IMG/VR virus record: IMGVR_UViG_3300001505_000001
Strand: one strand, 5' to 3'
Length of the DNA stretch: 64,000 nt
Source of the DNA: a virus
The notes under the pieces were generated by a model. It made no database searches and was not told where the DNA came from. It worked only from the letters and a program-made list of their open reading frames with translations. Made by a program: the position numbers and the translations under genes. Within the stretch, counting starts at the first letter, position 1. The number at the start of each line of letters is the position of its first letter. Below, piece by piece: positions 1-19,301 of the stretch.

Positions 1-215
1 CAATATAATAAATATTTAATAAAATTTTTATACAATAATTTATATATAACTTTTTATTTTTGATATATAACAAAATTATATAATCTATTAATTAAAAACT
101 TTTTAGCAGTGTTCTGTTTTTTGTTCGTATTAAATTATCAATGTTCTAATTTCTTTCTTTTAACTTGCCTATATCGTAACGCCGTTTTTTGATTTTGCGT
201 TAAAAATAACCTAGT

Positions 216-315
216 TTGTAACATTCTTGTAATATAAAACTATTCAAACATGCGATATTAAAGCCTTTTATAGTAGATTGTAATTATTATTATTTGTAAT
301 ATTCTTGTAATATAG
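216..315 (+). promoter_or_regulatory. Tandem 11-bp iteron-like boxes (TTGTAAYATTC) upstream of the first early gene; candidate operator
   Basis: Direct repeats TTGTAACATTC/TTGTAATATAA at 216-237 and TTGTAATTATT, TTGTAATATTC, TTGTAATATAG at 279-315. Same motif family recurs at 2603-2664. Confidence 0.45.
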
Positions 316-550
316 GCGTGTTTCTTCCATATAAAGACAAAAATATTATTTCAAACTTGTATTTTTCCTTTTAATAGTAGAAACTATTTTAAAAAATAAA
401 TTTTAAAATTTTTTACGCTTACTCTCTCAAGGGATTTAGTCATTTTTTAGTATGTAAATTTAAAATTAATACTTGCAATTAGTTTTATAAGGGCGTATAG
501 TAAGAATTGTCAAAAGGGCAACAAACAAAAAAGAAAAAGGATGATAAAAA

Positions 551-2028: not shown

Positions 2029-2382
2029 ATGAAAAATTTGATATTATCAAATATAACAAAATATGAAAATTTTGAAGAGTATTCAAAATATATGAATACA
2101 GATAAAGAAGAATTTAAAGAAAATGAAGCAAATGGTTTTGTTATAAATATCACGTGTGGAACATATAACGGCGCTACTGATGAATTTACGCCGTGTCGCA
2201 TTACTGATGACAATATTATTGATACTTTAGTGCAAGCATTAAGTGATTTAGATTATTATAATATTATTGCTAATATGGTAGATGAAGATACTACCAATTG
2301 GAAAATTGAGAAATTTATTTATGAATTAGTTAGCATTGAAAAAAATTTTTATAATAGAAGATACAAGAAATATTTATATTGA
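2029..2382 (+). CDS. hypothetical acidic early protein (117 aa)
   Basis: ORF closely spaced after the previous gene, same strand. Followed by a terminator. Confidence 0.6.
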   Translation: MKNLILSNITKYENFEEYSKYMNTDKEEFKENEANGFVINITCGTYNGATDEFTPCRITDDNIIDTLVQALSDLDYYNIIANMVDEDTTNWKIEKFIYELVSIEKNFYNRRYKKYLY

Positions 2383-2392
2383 TAGAAATTAA

Positions 2393-2420
2393 AACGGGCT
2401 TTCATAGTCCGTTTTTTTGT
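2393..2420 (+). terminator. rho-independent terminator (hairpin aaacggGCTTTCATAGTccgttt plus T7)
   Basis: Stem-loop followed by ttttttt immediately after the stop of ORF 2029-2382. Confidence 0.55.
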
Positions 2421-2434
2421 GTTTTTTAAGTCGA

Positions 2435-2448
2435 AAATGAAAGCGCTT
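2435..2448 (+). promoter_or_regulatory. perfect 14-bp palindrome TGAAAGCGCTTTCA (candidate dimeric-repressor operator)
   Basis: Exact palindrome adjacent to an extended -10 like element (tgatataat at 2459-2467). Confidence 0.35.
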
Positions 2449-2567
2449 TCAAACCGTTGATATAATGGCAATCTGTCCATATAGCGACTTTATTAAGTTT
2501 TTAGGGGTATTGTAGCCTAAAAGACTAAAGTCCATAAATGCCCCTTTAAAATGGATTTTAAGGCATG

Positions 2568-2596
2568 TTGACAAAATTATAAACTTGTGTTATATA
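2568..2596 (+). promoter_or_regulatory. sigma-A consensus-like promoter TTGACA-17-TATATA
   Basis: -35 at 2568-2573, -10 at 2591-2596. Immediately followed by four tandem 11-bp TTGTAA boxes. Confidence 0.5.
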
Positions 2597-2602
2597 GTCA
2601 GT

Positions 2603-2664
2603 TTGTAATTTTACACATTATTTTGTAACATTCTTGTAATATTCTTGTAGTTGATTTGTAACAG
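2603..2664 (+). promoter_or_regulatory. Tandem 11-bp iterons ttgtaacattc/ttgtaatattc/ttgtagttgat/ttgtaacag (plus one copy at 2603); candidate operator downstream of promoter
   Basis: Four head-to-tail 11-bp repeats with one-helical-turn periodicity. Same family as 216-315. Confidence 0.45.
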
Positions 2665-2720
2665 TCAAAGTGTTAAAGTATAGACAGTTAGAAAAAACAA
2701 GAAAAAAAGGATGATAAAAA

Positions 2721-3023
2721 ATGAAACTCAATAAAATGTTAAACAAAGCAAGAAACAACAAAACAAAAACAACACAAACAACATTAAAAAATAATGGCTT
2801 GAATATTAAAATTGAATACAGACCGAACGCCGAAGGGTTTAACAGTCAATATAAAAACAATACTTTTTATACCTATATTGATAATGAACTTGTTGGCGAC
2901 TTATACCAACAAGAAAACAATGTTTTAATGTGGTGTGATAATCACAATAAGTTAGTTTCTAATTTAACAGAAGCTAAACACATTGAGCATGTTTATAGTT
3001 TAGGATATATCGAAGAAGTGTAA
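2721..3023 (+). CDS. hypothetical early protein (100 aa)
   Basis: Conserved aaaaaggatgataaaaaATG cassette. Confidence 0.6.
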   Translation: MKLNKMLNKARNNKTKTTQTTLKNNGLNIKIEYRPNAEGFNSQYKNNTFYTYIDNELVGDLYQQENNVLMWCDNHNKLVSNLTEAKHIEHVYSLGYIEEV

Positions 3024-3051
3024 AATTTTACTTTTTATTTTTAAAAAGATG

Positions 3052-3079
3052 TTGAAATAAGTGCAAAATTTGATACAAT
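3052..3079 (+). promoter_or_regulatory. promoter TTGAAA-16-TACAAT with GTGTAAAATTT upstream box and A-tract
   Basis: Cassette gtgtaaaatttt...tttaaaaag-atgTTGAAAtaa...TACAAT. Repeated architecture (828, 3655). Confidence 0.5.
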
Positions 3080-3217
3080 AAAGACAGTTAAGAAAATAAT
3101 AAAGGTGGTAACAAAAATGATTACATTATATATACTTGCTCATTGGCGTATGAGCAAAGAAAAGAAAAAACAAAGTGAGTTATATTTTGCTTATACTAGA
3201 TAAGGTGGTTATAAAAA

Positions 3218-3460
3218 ATGAAATTAATAAACAGTAATAAAGAAATTGAAGCGATTAATAATAAAGAAAATGATTTTATTGTAAATGTTCGTTATAAACT
3301 CACAGATTATATTACAGATTGTATGCGTAACAATGAAGATGACCATATAGAAATTTTAAAGTGGTTGTCAACATTAGAAAAATGTTTAATATGTGAAACG
3401 GTTAAAGATTTAATTAACCTAATTAATATCTATGATTTACCTTTTAATATTATAAAGTAA
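3218..3460 (+). CDS. hypothetical early protein (80 aa)
   Basis: SD aaggtgg plus ATG (ataaggtggttataaaaaATG). Confidence 0.55.
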   Translation: MKLINSNKEIEAINNKENDFIVNVRYKLTDYITDCMRNNEDDHIEILKWLSTLEKCLICETVKDLINLINIYDLPFNIIK

Positions 3461-3474
3461 GGTGGTTTTAAAAA

Positions 3475-3621
3475 ATGATTAAGTTTACACACAAAAACAA
3501 AAAATATAAAAGCACACAAACAACAGACGCATTAATAACGTTGTTTGGTGGTACTGGATTAATTACATTGCTTGATTGGTTGGTATCAATTCAAGATAAT
3601 ATAAATATTTTCTTAAGATAG
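3475..3621 (+). CDS. small hydrophobic protein (48 aa)
   Basis: Same SD cassette gtaaggtggttttaaaaaATG. Not in the ORF track (under 60 aa). Hydrophobic core LITLFGGTGLITLL. Confidence 0.35.
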   Translation: MIKFTHKNKKYKSTQTTDALITLFGGTGLITLLDWLVSIQDNINIFLR

Positions 3622-4161: not shown

Positions 4162-4431
4162 ATGAATAATGAATTAAAAAGACATGTTAACAATGAATAT
4201 AAAAAAATGATAAGTGATTGCTATAAACGTATAAAAAACGTTGGTGGCGTCATTACAAATGATTTTAAACAATGGGGCAACATAGATGAATGCGATGACA
4301 TATATTACATTATAAATCACTATGCGTATAAGCTATATAAAAAAGGTGTTAAAGAAATAAGCATAACACCGAAATTTATTAAGTTGATTCTTAACAATGA
4401 TAAAGCGAAATATATTAAAAAAGGATGTTAA
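4162..4431 (+). CDS. hypothetical early protein (89 aa)
   Basis: SD aaaggggggtg upstream of the ATG. Confidence 0.55.
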   Translation: MNNELKRHVNNEYKKMISDCYKRIKNVGGVITNDFKQWGNIDECDDIYYIINHYAYKLYKKGVKEISITPKFIKLILNNDKAKYIKKGC

Positions 4432-4434
4432 AAT

Positions 4435-4734
4435 ATGGATAAAAATTTAGTAGATATTAATTTAGAATTAAGTAAAGGCTATGCAATCGACTTAAATATT
4501 TTAAGTTATAAAATAACTATTGTGAAACATGATAATGAAACGCTAGGCGTTTTCTATAAACATGTTAAGATTGGGGAATTAAATTCCAATAACAGTATTT
4601 TTTATCGCTTCACATTTTACGGCGAAGATTTTGGGACACGTGATTTTATCTATGATAAAGTAACAAGCATTAAGCAAGTGCTAGGGATTATGTTGTATCA
4701 TGATTTTGATATAATAGATTATGATAATTATTAA
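4435..4734 (+). CDS. hypothetical early protein (99 aa)
   Basis: Coupled to the previous gene. Last gene of the rightward cluster. Confidence 0.55.
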   Translation: MDKNLVDINLELSKGYAIDLNILSYKITIVKHDNETLGVFYKHVKIGELNSNNSIFYRFTFYGEDFGTRDFIYDKVTSIKQVLGIMLYHDFDIIDYDNY

Positions 4735-4756
4735 GAAGAAATAAATATATATTAAG

Positions 4757-4786
4757 TCTAGCTATTAAGTAGCTAGGCTTTTTTAT
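4757..4786 (+). terminator. rho-independent terminator (ctagctaTTAAGtagctag plus gcttttttatt)
   Basis: Palindromic 7-bp stem, 5-nt loop, T-run. Ends the rightward early cluster. Confidence 0.55.
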
Positions 4787-4789
4787 TAT

Positions 4790-6060
4790 GCCTTATTTTA
4801 AGCGCTATTATATAACGGGTCTTATATACCCTTTGACTTATAACGTTTCTGTGTGGCTTTCTGTGTGGATTGTATAACGGGGGGTGGTTATATATTACAT
4901 TGTTTACATGGTCGGTCTAATAATAAGGGTTTATATAATCGTTACTTATATTATAGGTTGCTATATATGAACGGCAATATATAAAGGGCAGTATATTAAA
5001 GGCGTATATATAACAGTGCTATATAATGAATATATAGGGCGTATATAAAGCGTTGTTATATAATAGGTGGTATATATCAAGGGTATATATAAAGGCGTGT
5101 ATATAAGCCTATATGTAGCATGTGTGTATATGTATCTATATATGTGTATGCTATATGTGTGTACATATGTATACAGTATATACAGTTGTGTATATGTATA
5201 GTGTGTATATATGTATGTAGTGTTATGTATATGTATCATGTGTGTAGTTGTATGTGTGTATGATAGTACAGTGATAGTAGTATGATTATGTGTAGTTATA
5301 TATAGTAATGTATATATAGTTATATATATATGTATAGTTGTGTGTTATGTAGTTGTGTGTAGTGTTGTGGTGTATCAGTATGTAGTATGTATATAGTGGA
5401 TAATGTACACAGTAGTATATATCACAGTGTACATATGTATATGTGTACATGTATGTAAGTATTATAGTTATGTATATAGATATGTATATATATAGTTATC
5501 TTGATTGTGTCTTGTTGTTGTGTTGTGTGTTGTTGTGTATGTGATTGTATGTCATTGATATGTATTGATATATGTATGATTGTATATAGTTTGTTACATT
5601 GATATGTATTAGTTTATATATGATTAAGTGTATATTGTACATGATTATGTATTAGATATGTTTAATGTATTAGATTGTATTAGATTGTTTATAGTATTGA
5701 TTAGATTGTATTAGATAGATTGTTATTGATTGATTAGTATTGATTATGTATGAACACATGAACGATATCATATAACCTTATAACCTTATAACCTTTATAT
5801 ATCCTTATAACGCTTGTATGCGTATGTGTCGTGTATGTCTGTGTCTGTCTGTGCGTGTCTGTAGTGTGTTCGGTGTCATGTTCGTGTATTGTATTGTATG
5901 TGATACATGTTAGATATTATAATATGATATTTATTTATATAATATATTTGTACTACACAAGTTATATTATATAATTTTTTTATACAATACCAATGACATA
6001 TTATATCGTTTGTATACCTGGCATGTACAAACCTATAAAATATTTATAGAAATATTACAC
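4790..6060. repeat. Low-complexity non-coding tract: tandem ~15-bp TATATAA-GGCG repeats (4920-5100), C-depleted (GT)n/(TA)n-like alternating purine-pyrimidine sequence (5100-5760), ATAACCTT x3 (5766-5789), degenerate ATTAGATTGT repeats (5650-5750)
   Basis: Direct reading: the + strand has only about 2-3% C between about 5100 and 5760. About 13 degenerate copies of tatataaaggcg-like units. No plausible ORF on either strand. Confidence 0.8.
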
Positions 6061-6104
6061 CACCGGCAGTCTAATAAGAGGTCGGTATGGCTTCGGGTAG
6101 TCCT

Positions 6105-6145
6105 GGAAACGTTGGGGCTGTAGGGGTCCCCCTGTTTTTTATGTG
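6105..6145 (+). terminator. GC-rich hairpin (ggggctgtaggggtccccctg) plus T6, putative terminator
   Basis: Only GC-rich island in the region, followed by tttttt. Confidence 0.35.
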
Positions 6146-6161
6146 AAAATTTGATTCTTTT

Positions 6162-6284
6162 TTAAAAGACAAGCGCCCCCCCTTCGCTCATATAGAAACC
6201 CCACAAAAAGGCAAAAATTGTCCACTCTGAATGGACAAATGTTCGTGTTTTAGTTAAATTTGTTTGTTTTGAGTAGACAATCAT
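6162..6284 (-). CDS. small hydrophobic peptide (40 aa, MIVYSKQTNLTKTRTFVHSEWTIFAFLWGFYMSEGGALVF)
   Basis: Strong SD aaaggag 8 nt upstream of the ATG on the minus strand. Lies directly downstream of the leftward consensus promoter at 6315-6343. Not in the ORF track (under 60 aa). Confidence 0.4.
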   Translation of the reverse strand: MIVYSKQTNLTKTRTFVHSEWTIFAFLWGFYMSEGGALVF

Positions 6285-6314
6285 TGTTTTTTCTCCTTTC
6301 TTTATCTTAATTAC

Positions 6315-6354
6315 ATTATATAATAGAAACAAGGGGGTGTCAACCCCTTTTTTA
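6315..6354 (-). promoter_or_regulatory. Terminator-promoter module A: hairpin gggggTGTCAAccccc with T-run (bidirectional terminator). On the minus strand TTGACA (6343-6338) -17- TATAAT (6320-6315).
   Basis: Perfect sigma-A consensus on the minus strand with the -35 inside the hairpin loop. Terminates the leftward cluster 6362-10921 and + strand transcription. Confidence 0.55.
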
Positions 6355-6361
6355 CAATTAA

Positions 6362-6574
6362 TTAAATAAAATCTGTTTTAATTCCATTAAGCTCAAATCC
6401 GTATCTCTCTGCTGCCTCTTTAGCTTCTGGTAAATCATCAAATATCTTAGCTTTGTTTATATCCTTAGTAGTAATTACTATAGTTTCTGTCACTTCTGAA
6501 CCATATACCTTAACCTCTTCTTCGAAGAATCTTCCATTTTCCATAATCACATAATAAACCTTTCCTATATCCAA
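6362..6574 (-). CDS. hypothetical protein (70 aa)
   Basis: Last ORF of the leftward cluster. Tight spacing with upstream genes. Confidence 0.45.
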   Translation of the reverse strand: MDIGKVYYVIMENGRFFEEEVKVYGSEVTETIVITTKDINKAKIFDDLPEAKEAAERYGFELNGIKTDFI

Positions 6575-6585
6575 TTATATCACTC

Positions 6586-6912
6586 CTAATAAAAATCTAC
6601 AATAAGGAAGAAATAATAATTATCATTAAATACAACTTTTTTTCTATATTCTATTGCTTCTACTAGATAATCATTTCTACTAATATCTCTTAGCTCTCTA
6701 TAGAGCAATCTAACGCTTTCTCTGTCTAAATATAGCTCTCCACTATCTACACATACGCCATACTTAAATAATAATTCTTTTACAACGTCATACATGGAAT
6801 CAGTCTCTTTATATAACTCTTGAAATATCCATTGATAAGCGTAATTATCATTATATAATAGATATGCTATATCATCTTTCATTCCAGAATGACACCCATA
6901 AACACAAAACAT
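6586..6912 (-). CDS. hypothetical protein (108 aa)
   Basis: ORF in a co-oriented array. Confidence 0.5.
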   Translation of the reverse strand: MFCVYGCHSGMKDDIAYLLYNDNYAYQWIFQELYKETDSMYDVVKELLFKYGVCVDSGELYLDRESVRLLYRELRDISRNDYLVEAIEYRKKVVFNDNYYFFLIVDFY

Positions 6913-6923
6913 ATTAACACTCC

Positions 6924-7139
6924 TTATATATTAAACAAAAAAGCCATTCCTATTAAAGAAGACAATATTCCTAAAGTGGAAAATATAATAGCTTCTATCT
7001 TGTTATTAGAAACATATACCATTATTTCAGAAAATATAATAAATGCTAACATAATAAATACAATTAGCGTTTCCATATAAAATAACCTCCTAAAAAACTT
7101 CCTATACAGTATTATACCATATAAGAAGTCATTTGTCAA
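6924..7139 (-). CDS. small membrane protein (71 aa, 2 predicted TM)
   Basis: Hydrophobic segments. Co-oriented array. Confidence 0.4.
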   Translation of the reverse strand: MTNDFLYGIILYRKFFRRLFYMETLIVFIMLAFIIFSEIMVYVSNNKIEAIIFSTLGILSSLIGMAFLFNI

Positions 7140-8643: not shown

Positions 8644-9108
8644 TTATGCTAAACTATAATCATTTCCGTAAATATCTTTATATATTTTAATCTTATCTGG
8701 AACGCTAGAATGGTATTCTTTAATCCCGTTCATTACACCTAAGCCAATCATTCTTGCATAGGATTGTGTTTTATAAGTTTTTGTATAATTAAACATTCTA
8801 TCCATGATATTAAATGGTCTCAAGTCACATTCTTTATCGAAAATCACACCAATTTTATCATTTCCCATTATTTCTATGTCTCTTTTATGCTCTTTTAGAA
8901 ATCTTTCAGCTACATATAGCTCGTCTTCTGTAAAAATACCGTCAATTTTACTAATAAATACCCCAAATGAGCCACTTTCAACCATTCTAATAGTCTCGAT
9001 TTGCATGTTTTTTCCGTCTATTTTATCGTAAAATGTCTCGATTTCCATAACATTATTAACTTTATTTAAGTCACTTACTTTTAATAAAAAATTCAATTCT
9101 TCATACAT
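8644..9108 (-). CDS. hypothetical protein (154 aa)
   Basis: ORF in the array. Confidence 0.5.
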   Translation of the reverse strand: MYEELNFLLKVSDLNKVNNVMEIETFYDKIDGKNMQIETIRMVESGSFGVFISKIDGIFTEDELYVAERFLKEHKRDIEIMGNDKIGVIFDKECDLRPFNIMDRMFNYTKTYKTQSYARMIGLGVMNGIKEYHSSVPDKIKIYKDIYGNDYSLA

Positions 9109-9135
9109 TTTCCTAATTTCTCCTTATTTTCTTAC

Positions 9136-9465
9136 TTATTTTACCTTATAATTAGTAATTCCACGCATTTTAAACTGTTTTCTTGCTGCTTTTATATTAT
9201 TATCTGTTGGATTCTTTAATGTTACCACATATTTACCTCTTTTGTAAAGTATTGTATTAGAACCAGCTACTCTATTAAGTTCTGATTTTAATAATTCTAA
9301 ACTTCTTTTACCATTTTCTTTAGAAAATTTATTATTTGCTACTTCTTGTTGCAGTTCTTGTTTGCCACTATGTACTATTCCTAAGAAAATTAGTATAGGT
9401 ATTATTATAAATTGTCCGATAATTATAAATGAACATATAATAAAAACTAATCCAATTATAAACAT
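9136..9465 (-). CDS. membrane protein (109 aa; N-terminal TM pair)
   Basis: N-terminal hydrophobic segment followed by a basic C-terminus. Confidence 0.5.
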   Translation of the reverse strand: MFIIGLVFIICSFIIIGQFIIIPILIFLGIVHSGKQELQQEVANNKFSKENGKRSLELLKSELNRVAGSNTILYKRGKYVVTLKNPTDNNIKAARKQFKMRGITNYKVK

Positions 9466-9480
9466 ATTAATCTCTCCTTT

Positions 9481-9798
9481 TTACATTATTCTAAAGTTTT
9501 TGACACCATGTTTAATAAGAATATCATATGTTTTTTCTTCGTTTTTCTTATTAACAACATTAATATCAAAATATTTTCTTTTTATATCATATTCAAAACT
9601 ACAATTACAATCTTTTTCAACTAATTCTTCAAGTAATTCAGTTCTTTTATCTTTTCCAATCTGTTCATCTAAATATTCAACAGAATTTTTTCTTTTAGGT
9701 GCTAACTTCTTAGCTCCAAGTCCTAATAATCCAATAACTAAAATGTATGACATATATATTAAACCTATAGTTACTCCTAACAGGAATAGTAATATCAT
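9481..9798 (-). CDS. membrane protein (105 aa; N-terminal TM pair)
   Basis: N-terminal hydrophobic region. Contains a CNCS cysteine motif. Confidence 0.5.
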   Translation of the reverse strand: MILLFLLGVTIGLIYMSYILVIGLLGLGAKKLAPKRKNSVEYLDEQIGKDKRTELLEELVEKDCNCSFEYDIKRKYFDINVVNKKNEEKTYDILIKHGVKNFRIM

Positions 9799-16657: not shown

Positions 16658-17251
16658 ATGATTGATAATTATATAATTGAACATCCATCTTATCAATATG
16701 CTTTATCAGTAGTTAATGATGAAATTATTTCTGGAAAGTATATCAAAAAGGAATGTCAACGTTTCTTAGATGAATTAGAAAACGAAGACAGTCCATACTT
16801 TTTAGAATTAAAAACATTAAAACTAATAGATGATTTAACAAAGTTACTCAACATGGCTGACGGAATGAAAATTGGTAAAAGTGTTAATGAATCATTAGCA
16901 CCTTTTCAATGGTATTTCTTAGTCAACGCTTTATGTTGGAAATACAAGAACAACCCAGAAAAAAGACGTTATGAAAAATCAACATTACTAATTGCTCGTA
17001 AATCAGGAAAGAGTTTTTTAGTAGCTTTGATTTTTATATTATTGTTGCTACTAGAACCTAAAAATTCAGAGTTCTATTCAGTAGCACCAGACAGAGAACT
17101 TTCTTCAATTGTAAAAAAAGAAATAGGTAAAATGATTGAAGCAAGCCCAGCAATTTCTGATAAGTTTAAAGTTATTAAATCAGAAGTAACTTGTCTTTTA
17201 AACAATAGTAAAATGATTGCATTGGCTACATCTGATAATCGGATGGACGGT
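16658..17251 (+). CDS. terL: terminase large subunit, exon 1 (ATPase domain, Walker A ARKSGKS)
   Basis: TerL N-terminal domain. Reading frame runs into a stop 24 nt into the intron. Exon ends ...RMDG at a U. P1 pairing GACGGU with intron GCCGUC at 17263-17268. Confidence 0.75.
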
Positions 17252-18185
17252 AACTCAACTTACTGCCGTCGTTAAATCGGGCAAAATCGGTGGAAAACTT
17301 TGACAATGTCTATATTTTATGATATTATATTATTAGGAGGTTAATAATATGTTTGGATATATTTATAAAACGACTAATAATATAAATGGAAAAATATATA
17401 TAGGCAAAAAGCACAGCAGCTCTTTTATTAAGGATTATTATGGAAGTGGAAAACTTATAAACAGAGCTATTGATAAGTATGGCATAGAGAATTTTAGTGT
17501 AGAGATAATAGAAGAATGTGAAACATTAGAAGAACTTAATTTAAAAGAAAAATATTATATAAAACATTTAGAATCTAATTATAAACTAGGTAAAGGATAT
17601 AATATTGCTTCTGGTGGAGATGGTGGTAATATAATCAGTTTATTACCAGAAATTGACTATAATTCCTTTATTCTTGATTGTAAAAGGAGAGCAAAAGGAA
17701 AAAATAATCCTAACTATGGAAATGGTTATAAAATATCTGGAAACAATAATCCATCTAAAAGACCTGAGGTTAGAGAAAAATTAAGTAAAGCTACTAGTGG
17801 AAAAAACAATCCAATGTATGGCAAAAAAGGAAAATTAAGTCATAGATATGGAACAAAACATTCCGAAGAAACAAAGAACAAAATAAAAGAATCTCTAAAA
17901 AATAAAGTATATAAAAAAATCTGTAAGAATTGTAACAGAGAATTTGATACTAAATATGCTAGAACTACATATTGCAGTGCTGATTGTAAAAGAAAATACC
18001 GAGATAACCATAATAAATAAAAATATTATGGTATTGTAACGCATAGGAATTGAACCTATGTTTTTTTATTAGCATAGAATATAATATTCCCACGAGGGTC
18101 CGACAGTAATATACTGAAAATGTATGCTGAACTATATGGCGACATATAGAAGTGATTGATAAAAAACTATCACGATAACAAAATG
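17252..18185 (+). mobile_element. group I intron in terL carrying a GIY-YIG homing endonuclease
   Basis: Exon halves rejoin as RMDG-RKANVFVADEVG (Walker B). P1 helix with U.G at the 5' splice site. Terminal G at 18185. Exact 3' boundary is 18185 or 18188. Confidence 0.6.
17349..18020 (+). CDS. GIY-YIG homing endonuclease (intron-encoded) with NUMOD3-like repeats
   Basis: GYIYKTTNNINGKIYIGKK (GIY...YIG), conserved R, NPxYG-type C-terminal DNA-binding repeats, C-terminal CxxC Zn finger. Strong SD ggagg. Confidence 0.8.
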   Translation: MFGYIYKTTNNINGKIYIGKKHSSSFIKDYYGSGKLINRAIDKYGIENFSVEIIEECETLEELNLKEKYYIKHLESNYKLGKGYNIASGGDGGNIISLLPEIDYNSFILDCKRRAKGKNNPNYGNGYKISGNNNPSKRPEVREKLSKATSGKNNPMYGKKGKLSHRYGTKHSEETKNKIKESLKNKVYKKICKNCNREFDTKYARTTYCSADCKRKYRDNHNK

Positions 18186-19301
18186 AGGAAAGCCAATGTC
18201 TTTGTAGCTGATGAAGTTGGAGCACTCAAAAACAGATACCCAATTGAAGCAATGGAATCATCTCAAATGAATATGATTAATAGAACAGGTATTCTTATAT
18301 CTACTGCTTATGATAGCACAGATAATCCAATGGTACAAGAAGTAGAGTATGCAGAAAAAGTATTAGATGGTTTGATTGATGACGATAGTTATTTTGCTAT
18401 GTTATTCAAACCAGATGATGTAAGAGATTGGATGTCAGATAAAACGTTATATGAATCTAATCCTTTATGTTACACTGTACCTGCTAACTATGATTATTTA
18501 GTTAAGAAAAGAAACAAAGCATTAGAAATGTCTGATGCTAAATCTAACTTTTTAACTAAACATTTAAACATATTTATTGACGGAGATATTGAAGAATCAT
18601 TTGTTACTATAGATGATTTAAGACAAGGAAAAATAGCAGAAGAAGATTTTGATTGGAATGGCAGAGAAGTTTATTTAGGCATCGACTTAGCTGAAACTGT
18701 CGACAACACTGCTGTTTCAATGGTTTATTATGATAATGATAAAGATAAGTTTTATACAAAATGTTGGTCGTTTATTCCACAAGAGAAAGCGACAGAAAAA
18801 TCAAAAAGAGAACGTATTAATTATTTCTTAATGCGTGACAAAGGTTGGGCTTTTTTATGTGGAGATAGAGTAATAAGCCAACGTTTTGTTGAAGATTACG
18901 TATTAGGAATAGAAAAAAAGTATAATGTTATAGTAAAAGGTATCGGATATGATAGACGTAATGCAATATCATCTGTAAATAGATTTATAGATGAAGGAGA
19001 TTACGAGTGTATAGAAGTAAGACAAAATAGTTCGTCGCTTGGTCCGACATTTAAAATGATGAGAGATTATATTATAGATGGCAATTTCCTTTACCAAGAA
19101 AATGAACTTTTAGAAAACAACTATAAAAATGCACGAATAACATATGATACTACAATGAATATATATGTCAATAAAAAGAAAAGTGCCGGTAAAATAGATG
19201 GTGTCTATGCTACAGCAGACGCAATGTATTTATGGAAACAAGATATTGACGACGGATTATTGGCAAGTAGTTTTGAAGATAGGGGATTATTTATTTTGTA
19301 A
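18186..19301 (+). CDS. terL: terminase large subunit, exon 2 (Walker B VFVADE plus nuclease domain)
   Basis: Continuation of TerL. In-frame stop TGA at 18153-18155 upstream excludes an independent start earlier. Combined protein about 569 aa. Confidence 0.7.
   Translation, partial: RKANVFVADEVGALKNRYPIEAMESSQMNMINRTGILISTAYDSTDNPMVQEVEYAEKVLDGLIDDDSYFAMLFKPDDVRDWMSDKTLYESNPLCYTVPANYDYLVKKRNKALEMSDAKSNFLTKHLNIFIDGDIEESFVTIDDLRQGKIAEEDFDWNGREVYLGIDLAETVDNTAVSMVYYDNDKDKFYTKCWSFIPQEKATEKSKRERINYFLMRDKGWAFLCGDRVISQRFVEDYVLGIEKKYNVIVKGIGYDRRNAISSVNRFIDEGDYECIEVRQNSSSLGPTFKMMRDYIIDGNFLYQENELLENNYKNARITYDTTMNIYVNKKKSAGKIDGVYATADAMYLWKQDIDDGLLASSFEDRGLFIL

Follow-up and report, generated by a model that had tools for sequence, protein, structure and literature searches.

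A cytosine-depleted, alternating non-coding tract beside the cohesive end of Sextaecvirus DNA: a possible genome-end module

The DNA considered here is a stretch of 64,000 nt (hereafter the window) from the IMG/VR virus record IMGVR_UViG_3300001505_000001, and the subject is a long non-coding tract, poor in C on the top strand, that lies between an intrinsic terminator at 4754–4786 and a cohesive-end sequence at 6171–6180. The region matches the Staphylococcus epidermidis siphoviruses of the genus Sextaecvirus (6ec, SEP9, BE02, BE22, CF1, CF9 and PG-2021_88), and on these sequence matches the window is itself a Sextaecvirus of the 6ec/SEP9 group, with no more than 97.4 % identity to any record. 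The ends of phage 6ec were fixed from aligned sequencing reads and carry a 10 nt 3′ overhang, AAGCGCCCCC (PMC4125762). This sequence is present exactly at window positions 6171–6180 (plus strand), with the linear 6ec record ending at 6180 and restarting at 6181, and by identity with the 6ec ends it is a cohesive-end (cos) type of genome terminus. Because the 6ec overhang sits at this position, the tract is the right-terminal non-coding region, that is, the last ~1.4 kb at the right physical end of the virion DNA, and the window crosses the cos junction. The gap that it occupies is 1437 bp long and is the biggest non-coding gap in the genome; the other non-coding gaps of the same genome are unskewed in composition. 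A rightward and a leftward gene cluster converge here, as an earlier note on this DNA had stated and as the annotated 6ec, BE02 and CF records agree.

The left boundary of the non-coding end region is the terminator at 4754–4786 (plus strand; a 12 bp stem and a T-run, called at 4754–4780 by the terminator scan), which closes the rightward small-gene cluster and is annotated as a rho-independent terminator in 6ec. Next come two tandem copies of TTTCTGTGTGGC at 4846–4868 (plus strand), a repeat of the type found by Tandem Repeats Finder (TRF), with a 100 % match between copies and no variation in any of nine aligned relatives. The segment 4932–5116, to which no strand is assigned, contains 14 TATATWW boxes, spanning 4932–5110, with G-rich spacers such as ggcgTATATAAagg; the mean spacing is 13.7 bp, TRF reports periods of 13–14 and the Fourier spectrum peaks at 14. 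These boxes, which the earlier note had counted as about 13 degenerate repeats at 4920–5100, are putative protein-binding iterons. The array gives way to a TG/TA alternating core at 5117–5500 (plus strand; alternation ~0.8, C 4.5 %, alternating runs of up to 31 nt) and then to T-rich G/T/A repeats at 5501–5760 (plus strand; C 2.7 %) built from TTGTG, GATTG and seven copies of TGTATTAGAT, the last with a period of 10 at 5648–5716. Four ATAACCTT repeats, three of them exact (starting at 5772, 5780 and 5788) and one degenerate, occupy 5766–5811 (plus strand), and a GT-rich segment of TGTC/TGCG units at 5815–5899 (plus strand; period 10, four copies) has counterparts in phages PMBT8, PG-2021_4 and CF1.

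Closer to the end there is an AT-rich, promoter-like segment at 5935–6045 (plus strand) containing the element TTTTTATACAAT. The 6ec annotation places a PHIRE regulatory element at the corresponding position, and further copies of the TTTTTATACAAT motif stand at window position 25 and in the divergent early region of 6ec. The conserved cos-proximal segment, 6050–6146 (plus strand), includes an invariant palindrome, GGGGTCCCCC, and finishes in a terminator-like hairpin and T-run (6114–6135 in the terminator scan). Beyond the cut, the left-end control elements lie on the minus strand at 6218–6349, and comprise a terminator (6238–6218), a consensus promoter (6343–6315) and a second terminator (6349–6331); in 6ec, terminators are annotated at 26–69 and 137–180. 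The bracketing terminators of the earlier note were thus all found by the scan, at 4754–4780 (plus), 6114–6135 (plus) and 6331–6349 (minus), together with one that it had not listed, at 6218–6238 (minus). The other repeats that it had reported (TTTCTGTGTGGC twice, ATAACCTT three times and TGTATTAGAT, now seven times) are likewise present and degenerate. All the repeat arrays of the tract are degenerate, with 61–83 % matches by TRF, and the tract length differs among strains only from 1347 to 1393 bp, which is not the behaviour of a microsatellite or variable-number tandem repeat. The inverted repeats found within the tract are short TATA-type matches only.

We note that promoter-plus-terminator units aim at cos from both sides, at 6011–6146 on the plus strand and 6343–6212 on the minus strand. 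The minus-strand promoter is a perfect TTGACA-17-TATAAT and overlaps the terminator hairpin of the leftward operon, while in the plus-strand unit the differences among strains looked paired, although RNAalifold gave no compensatory pairs. A small RNA between the tract and cos (6050–6145) was considered and rejected; plausible folds exist for single sequences, but there are 0 compensatory pairs and the covariation term is unfavourable.

The most conspicuous property of the tract is its composition. Between 5100 and 5760 the plus strand has 24 Cs in 661 nt (C 3.6 %, G 21.6 %, T 46.1 %, A 28.6 %), the lowest C or G fraction on either strand of any 661 nt stretch in the window; outside the tract the minimum for a stretch of this length is 6.4 %. 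Against the window-wide C content of 14 % the binomial probability of the core count is 5 × 10−19, and the GC skew of the core is +0.71. The earlier note had put C at 2–3 %, G at ~25 %, T at ~40 % and A at ~30 %, which gives the direction of the bias correctly but not the exact figures. The core is essentially a degenerate (T-purine)n sequence, TA, AT, GT and TG making up 74 % of its dinucleotides, and its purine/pyrimidine alternation is 0.79 versus 0.476 ± 0.026 elsewhere (z = 12). Of the window's 18 alternating runs with a length of 12 nt or more, 11 fall within the tract; they are 12–31 nt long and mix TG with TA, while Z-DNA-prone tracts are marked by long unbroken alternation rich in GC or GT. 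The G+C content of the tract, 25–29 %, compares with 30 % for the genome, and the 300 bp closest to the cos end show no strand skew.

The tract is non-coding, as the earlier note had also concluded. It contains 161 stop codons over the six frames, no mechanically called open reading frame (ORF) within it stays intact across the relatives, and the longest, of 92 aa, is a low-complexity sequence rich in Y, I and T that the TATA repeats spell out; no ORF being conserved, a protein-coding function was rejected. A 43 aa ORF with a GTG start at 4853–4984 (plus strand) is open in 6ec, CF9, BE22, PG88 and BE02 and has no SEP9 counterpart, and is probably a by-product of DNA conservation. The BE22 and S-CoN_Ph11 records have 8–10 ‘hypothetical proteins’ of 30–60 aa annotated inside the tract (at 2143–3493 and 2082–3480, respectively), but these appear from the sequences to be probable spurious gene calls, since none is conserved between strains. 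After the tract, the most skewed parts of the window are 6400–7100 and 9000–9500, in the leftward cluster by the left end, where G on the top strand is 6.5–6.7 %, a polarity that mirrors that of the tract. This is probably a coding-strand bias, because the skew is not limited to the genome end; a local peak in cumulative GC skew is similarly accounted for by gene orientation.

All nine close relatives, like the window, contain a stretch with less than 6 % C, and two metagenomic contigs have the same profile. Terminator and cos flank are 1347–1393 bp apart, and the C content is 7.6–8.2 %, in the window and six relatives, these being the seven sequences in which both anchors could be placed; the left anchor, the 4754–4786 terminator, served in nine relatives. 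The length spread across strains is within 3.4 %. The earlier note had asked whether the tract might be an assembly artefact, or absent or unconserved in relatives, and whether its length varies. It is real, being found in nine independent isolate assemblies and two metagenomic contigs, its architecture is conserved, and the range of lengths offers no sign of expansion of the copy-number type.

The segments of the tract evolve in very different ways. The box array and its surroundings (4800–5200) are 87–100 % identical, and mostly 92–100 %, in seven of the eight aligned relatives (all but SEP9), whereas the gene just upstream of the array is only 59–88 % identical in six of those seven (all but 6ec and SEP9). 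The core at 5200–5800 has identities of 43–88 %, even in comparison with 6ec, whose flanks are 97–100 % identical. Within it, 5117–5500 is 56–88 % identical to most relatives of the 6ec group and 44 % identical to SEP9, the composition being kept, and 5501–5760 is mosaic or allelic, with a TGTTGTTGTG block common to the window and SEP9 and unlike the 6ec group; no other copy of the exact window sequence of 5500–5760 was found. The cos-proximal part (5800–6180) is again 86–100 % identical in most 6ec-group relatives. In the well-aligned columns of the core, 25 of 154 purine sites vary between A and G and only 8 of 145 pyrimidine sites between T and C (Fisher P = 0.003); in the flanking genes the two types of transition are symmetric, at 20 % and 23 %. 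Because T↔C changes in the core are three times rarer than A↔G changes, the absence of C from the top strand is actively maintained, either by selection or by strongly asymmetric mutation, while the exact sequence can drift freely.

A search with the portal protein supplied a ladder of more distant relatives, in which the layout can be followed beyond detectable similarity of the DNA. Staphylococcus hyicus phage PMBT8 (portal 71 % identical) has an unannotated, convergent gap of 1.56 kb, with no BLAST similarity to the tract, that contains in order a terminator, TATAWA/G-rich boxes, a core of ~600 nt, ATAACCTT repeats, a GT-rich segment and a cos-like sequence, GACAAGCGACCC; its core is the genome-wide minimum of C (5 %) and maximum of alternation (0.72–0.77). 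The same module order is found in Mammaliicoccus phage PG-2021_4 (portal 58 %), with weaker C depletion (7–12 %) and no detectable DNA similarity. ATAACC(T) repeats stand at the matching relative position in both, in three copies in PMBT8 and four to five in PG-2021_4. Lactobacillus phage B2 (portal 36 %) shares whole-end synteny with 6ec, again with no DNA similarity detectable, and has a top-strand G/T-rich tract (C 4–6 %, T 42–45 %) lying 300–900 bp from its right end, which reads GAGCGCCCTA joined to CCCTT and resembles the 6ec cos; the GATTGATTG/TTGTG style of repeat seen at 5501–5760 is also present. Enterococcus phage VPE25 (portal 40 %) has its genome-wide maximum of alternation (0.70–0.75) in 1 kb of non-coding DNA by a GC-rich record end, with an array of TATATAC-GG boxes, so that analogues of the TATATWW array are known from PMBT8 and VPE25. 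Geobacillus phage GR1 (portal 52 %) has a 1.35 kb non-coding region that is the G minimum of the genome in the corresponding polarity, with little alternation. Ldl1 (portal 34 %) shows a small patch only, in the part inspected, and the small HNH-cos outgroup LL-Ku (portal 28 %) has no tract.

The polarity is the same in every lineage whose end can be located: the strand poor in C and rich in G/T has its 3′ end at the adjacent terminus, the physical ends of VPE25 and GR1 being assumed. In 6ec-like and B2-like genomes the tract remains beside cos although accessory modules lie between it and the replication operon; in VPE25 and GR1 it is at the main divergence point of the replication and late operons. 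Two further observations on these genomes concern other repeats. At positions 200–1 of the PG-2021_4 record, the G-runs and C-runs at the presumed cos have seven TTCTGAAYA repeats around them, which are candidate terminase-binding sites; a single TCTGAAT is present at the corresponding left-end hairpin of the window (~6226). B2 contains a second alternating patch at 75200–75660, with AAACACGCATACA-type repeats, in the divergent gap upstream of its rightward small genes. Because this patch has the opposite polarity (A 42 %, C 25 %, G 12 %), the small-gene module of B2 is flanked by inverted CA-rich and GT-rich alternating tracts. Satellites or islands with this cos, which would have delimited the packaging signal, were also sought, but the three genome matches are chance ones in unrelated GC-rich taxa and no bacterial island with it was found.

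It is very likely that the tract acts as DNA at the genome end, because the relatives keep its layout and strand polarity where its sequence has changed. As to what it does there, we give a probability of roughly 40 % to its being a cis-acting genome-end module that works with cos in DNA packaging or ejection. We count in support its position at cos, the constraint on its length and composition, the persistence of order and polarity beyond sequence similarity, and the presence of an HK97-type HNH-cos packaging set, identified by Pfam matches to HNH, Terminase_4, the large terminase subunit (TerL) and an HK97-family portal. A genome-end or packaging role was among the readings offered in the earlier note, and it gains from position, the tract being beside cos in every related lineage examined. 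In such a module the conserved box arrays would bind a phage or host protein, putatively the small terminase or a small regulator, and the C-free alternating core would act through its physical properties and not through a specific sequence; these would include flexible pyrimidine–purine steps, easy unwinding, and freedom from G/C-containing palindromes and stable hairpins. Phages lambda and HK97 package the terminase-gene side first and, by analogy with them, the right end would enter the head last, at the point where the HNH-terminase machine has to stop and cut, and would leave the virion first.

Several points weigh against this proposal. The direction of packaging is taken solely by analogy, and the arrays, which are across the cut from the terminase genes, stand 0.36–1.25 kb from it, a distance greater than that of any characterized cosB or cosQ element of which we are aware. 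The small HNH-cos phage LL-Ku has no tract, so HNH-cos machinery does not need one in general; Ldl1 offers just the small patch in the part inspected, and the features of VPE25 and GR1 are weak, their physical ends being assumed. Conserved polarity, moreover, is also predicted by the recombination, mutation-bias and transcription-insulation explanations discussed below.

Among characterized systems, the closest documented analogue appears to be the region of phage T5 that carries the injection stop signal (iss), a 1.66 kb untranslated repeat region whose repeat order is conserved among T5-like phages and whose function was inferred (10.1101/866236). The two are alike in being more than 1 kb of non-coding DNA that lies in a terminal portion of a large siphovirus genome and is full of repeats, direct as well as inverted, in having a repeat order better conserved than the neighbouring genes, and in owing their proposed functions to position and conservation, not genetics; the T5-type combination of a large non-coding region with order-conserved repeats is therefore seen in the tract also. 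However, the T5 region is 9–10 kb inside a 10 kb terminal repeat and contains paired DnaA boxes and large inverted repeats, whereas the tract abuts a cos end and has no DnaA boxes, no terminal redundancy and short TATA-type inverted repeats only. Its hallmark, strand-asymmetric C-free alternation, is not reported for T5.

With the cosQ–cosN–cosB region of lambda the tract shares its link to a cohesive-end cut; it is on the side where lambda has cosQ, which is required to end packaging, and has short repeats that could bind terminase or bending proteins. The lambda cos region is ~200 bp, with cosQ a single short element no more than ~30 bp from cosN and cosB on the terminase-gene side, whereas the tract is a module of ~1.4 kb with repeats 0.36–1.25 kb away and with mostly composition, not sequence, conserved. 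An arrangement like that of cosB or cosQ in lambda was not found, since the box array is 1.06–1.25 kb and the ATAACCTT repeats 0.36–0.40 kb from the cut, away from the terminase genes. In T7, the SRL and SRR elements are arrays of short imperfect repeats just inside the terminal repeats, of unproven function and linked to concatemer processing and packaging. The tract resembles them in having such arrays directly inside a genome end, but T7 has direct terminal repeats and not cos, and its arrays are under 300 bp and are not known to be strand-skewed alternating tracts.

Several alternative explanations need to be weighed against a packaging or ejection module. One, which we regard as unlikely, is that the tract is a platform for recombination or end replication, in which the 3′-ended C-free strand, laid bare by 5′–3′ resection or where lagging-strand synthesis stops short of the right end, would be loaded with a recombinase or annealing protein, invade a sister genome and prime concatemer replication. 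The G/T-rich strand does have its 3′ end at the adjacent terminus in all placeable lineages (again with the VPE25 and GR1 ends assumed), Sak4-like and RecJ-like genes are annotated in the relatives, the tract is about as long as one Okazaki fragment, and RecA and Rad51 are known to favour GT-rich DNA; the tract is also found in large phages with their own replisome and is missing from LL-Ku. Yet cos phages normally circularize by their cohesive ends, which resection would destroy, and the 300 bp nearest the end are unskewed. Single-strand folding is mixed, with some segments at the 96th–99th percentile (least structured) and the TATA array, among the most structured, at the 1st. The known staphylococcal Chi site is missing, and protection by Chi sites was rejected as an explanation (GAAGCGG was not found in the 64 kb window, nor AGCGG or GCGCGTG in the tract). 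A narrower and somewhat less probable version is a telomere-like end element, in which the C-free strand would be under selection for its fate as single-stranded DNA at the terminus, and whose G/T-rich 3′ tail would recruit Sak4/RecJ-type recombination machinery or protect the end. There is a formal resemblance, and nothing beyond it, to the TG1–3 telomeric repeats of yeast, in that both have irregular repeats with a C-free, G/T-rich strand whose 3′ side faces the DNA terminus, but the tract contains ~29 % A and stops ~300 bp before a unique cohesive end, and we know of no telomerase-like or end-binding system for this phage. If this version were true, the right terminus would start recombination-dependent concatemer replication across a lineage of large Firmicute siphoviruses.

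Between these two in likelihood, and also improbable, is the idea that the tract is a neutral spacer, a filler or buffer at the end, generated by repeat slippage together with strand-asymmetric deamination (C to T, A to G) of a strand that is more often single-stranded. The rapid, mosaic drift of the core fits this idea, as do the facts that transitions keep the purine/pyrimidine alternation, that a strand high in T and G and low in C and A bears the classic signature of deamination, and that the tract breaks assemblies as low-complexity DNA does. It does not readily explain why length is held within 3.4 %, why the module order survives in genera without sequence similarity, why the array is better conserved than its neighbour gene or why other non-coding gaps of the same genome are unskewed; virulent phages, besides, usually shed useless DNA.

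An origin of replication, with the 14 boxes as initiator-bound iterons and the alternating TA/TG core as the DNA-unwinding element, is about as doubtful as the telomere-like element. In favour of an origin, which the earlier note had suggested, a non-coding box array adjoins easily melted, alternating DNA, as in iteron-type origins, and conservation of the array is strong; the tract of VPE25 and GR1 is, in addition, at the main point of divergence of the replication and late operons. Other features speak against an origin. The 13.7 bp spacing is out of helical phase, and no Fourier signal for the 10–11 bp phasing expected of curvature or wrapping is present in the tract, which has the 14 bp box period only; the G+C content of the tract is close to that of the genome; no initiator gene is adjacent; and there is no cluster of DnaA boxes, of which 14 were found against 16.7 expected by chance, none in the tract. 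It is cos, and not the replication operon, that the tract accompanies in 6ec-like and B2-like genomes; gene orientation accounts for the local peak in cumulative GC skew; and the genome has a more conventional candidate in a divergent gap of 828 bp and 20 % G+C with palindromic repeats (described below).

We think it very unlikely that the tract is a transcription insulator, in which leftward read-through across cos would yield a C-rich, G-poor RNA that loads Rho, shielding the convergent operon and keeping RNA polymerase off cos. The bottom-strand RNA would indeed have 20–24 % C and 3–5 % G, the polarity is conserved and four terminators already bracket cos, but the Rho-loading proposal in the earlier note is weakened. 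The primary site of Rho binds YC dinucleotides, and these are scarce in that RNA, because the alternation leaves almost no adjacent pyrimidines; their density of 1.7–3 per 100 nt is at the 1st–8th percentile of the genome (1st–2nd in the centre of the core), which does not describe a Rho utilization (rut) site. A length of 650–1000 nt also greatly exceeds that of every known rut site, RNA polymerase on that strand would meet two intrinsic terminators before the tract, and Rho is known to be dispensable in staphylococci.

Least probable of all, and scarcely to be credited, is a long non-coding RNA, or a decoy in which the many TATA boxes titrate sigma factor or RNA polymerase, for although some boxes hold an exact TATAAT, the phage encodes its own sigma factor and a phage promoter-like element lies at 5965–5990, promoter-like sites in 4400–6700 number 16 against 21 expected from shuffled sequences, a strong terminator is directly upstream, the late-operon promoter-like repeats are unlike the boxes, and there is no covariation and no Rfam family (only sub-threshold, low-complexity matches to miRNA models, at 13–37 bits against thresholds of 37–100). 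Both forms of this idea, which came from the earlier note, are thus not borne out, and the array boxes were similarly rejected as late promoters, since the late-operon gap carries a different repeated element.

The remainder of the genome is best described from the 6ec map. The left end has 13 leftward accessory genes, followed by rightward genes for HNH, the small terminase subunit (TerS), a split TerL, portal, head, tail and lysis functions. A leftward replication block comes next, encoding a large DNA polymerase (DNA polymerase III alpha in the annotation of relatives), helicase, RecJ-like exonuclease, ribonucleotide reductase, Sak4-like protein and sigma factor, and the right part runs from a divergent AT-rich gap through 14 rightward small genes to the tract and cos. 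In the window, the large terminase is split into an ORF with the ATPase domain (16658–17275) and one with the nuclease domain (18156–19301), separated by an endonuclease gene at 17349–18020 that is annotated as an endodeoxyribonuclease in 6ec. The tape-measure gene of 6ec is likewise broken by an HNH gene, which suggests that both are homing-endonuclease, intron-like insertions. The divergent gap (window 1–470; 6ec 86638–87465) is the 828 bp, 20 % G+C segment mentioned above and separates the replication operon from the rightward small genes. Its repeats are GC palindromes, CCCGCCGGG or CCCCGGGG, followed by T-runs and TTATCATGAAA, together with promoter-like repeats of the form TTTTTATACAAT...TATATAA, and it is a conventional candidate for an early control region or origin.

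This end of the genome is poorly represented in the public databases. About 16 ‘complete’ records of 85–89 kb (MZ417343.1, MZ417336.1, OR354824–OR354833 and OR354837–OR354840) begin at the left cos end and have no right arm and no tract. The two far ends inspected, those of PG-2021_74 and S-CoN_Ph6 (MZ417343.1 and OR354829.1, the latter a Nanopore sequence, from two independent studies), are non-cohesive and lie at different points in the palindrome-rich divergent gap, near 86.75 kb of 6ec. Assembly, a nick or a fragile site may account for such breaks. Since the far end is not cohesive, the short records are clearly incomplete there and do not count as evidence that the tract is absent. An attempt to prove truncation by treating the window as the same phage as a short record fails, identity to any record being at most 97.4 %. 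Three records that cross cos (PG-2021_46, S-CoN_Ph3 and S-CoN_Ph16) end 58–207 nt into the right-end region, at the low-complexity edge, and S-CoN_Ph12 ends inside the tract. CF1 has a duplication of ~400 bp of window 5800–6145 with an inverted cos, CF9 lacks 22 bp including cos, and S-CoN_Ph11 lacks the equivalent of 5700–6180. S-CoN_Ph13 was rejected as a full junction, as it is a fold-back chimera centred in the leftward gene cluster with two inverted portal copies. These four anomalies are probable assembly errors; the S-CoN genomes are Nanopore/Flye assemblies. The tract is thus a sequencing hazard, with about half of the public ‘complete’ genomes of the group either having no right arm or ending at the tract.

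We found no description of the tract in the accessible literature or in record annotations; the 6ec announcement (PMC4125762), the SA2 paper, the paper on isolation of the BE phages (PMC10117716) and the S-CoN paper are all silent on the region, and the 6ec record leaves it blank except for the PHIRE element. It may prove to be an ordinary cos-flanking region. It belongs with the terminal non-coding repeat regions of phage genomes, from which its C-free alternation and its polarity relative to the end distinguish it. The Sextaecviruses and their relatives, the phages like VPE25 and B2, are either candidate therapeutic agents against staphylococci and enterococci or a source of trouble in dairy fermentation, and there is no map of their cis-acting DNA. 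For genome engineering and minimization it matters whether the tract, which makes up 1.5 % of the genome, can be removed, and the module could reveal how long-tailed cos phages of Gram-positive bacteria end packaging and begin DNA entry or concatemer replication.

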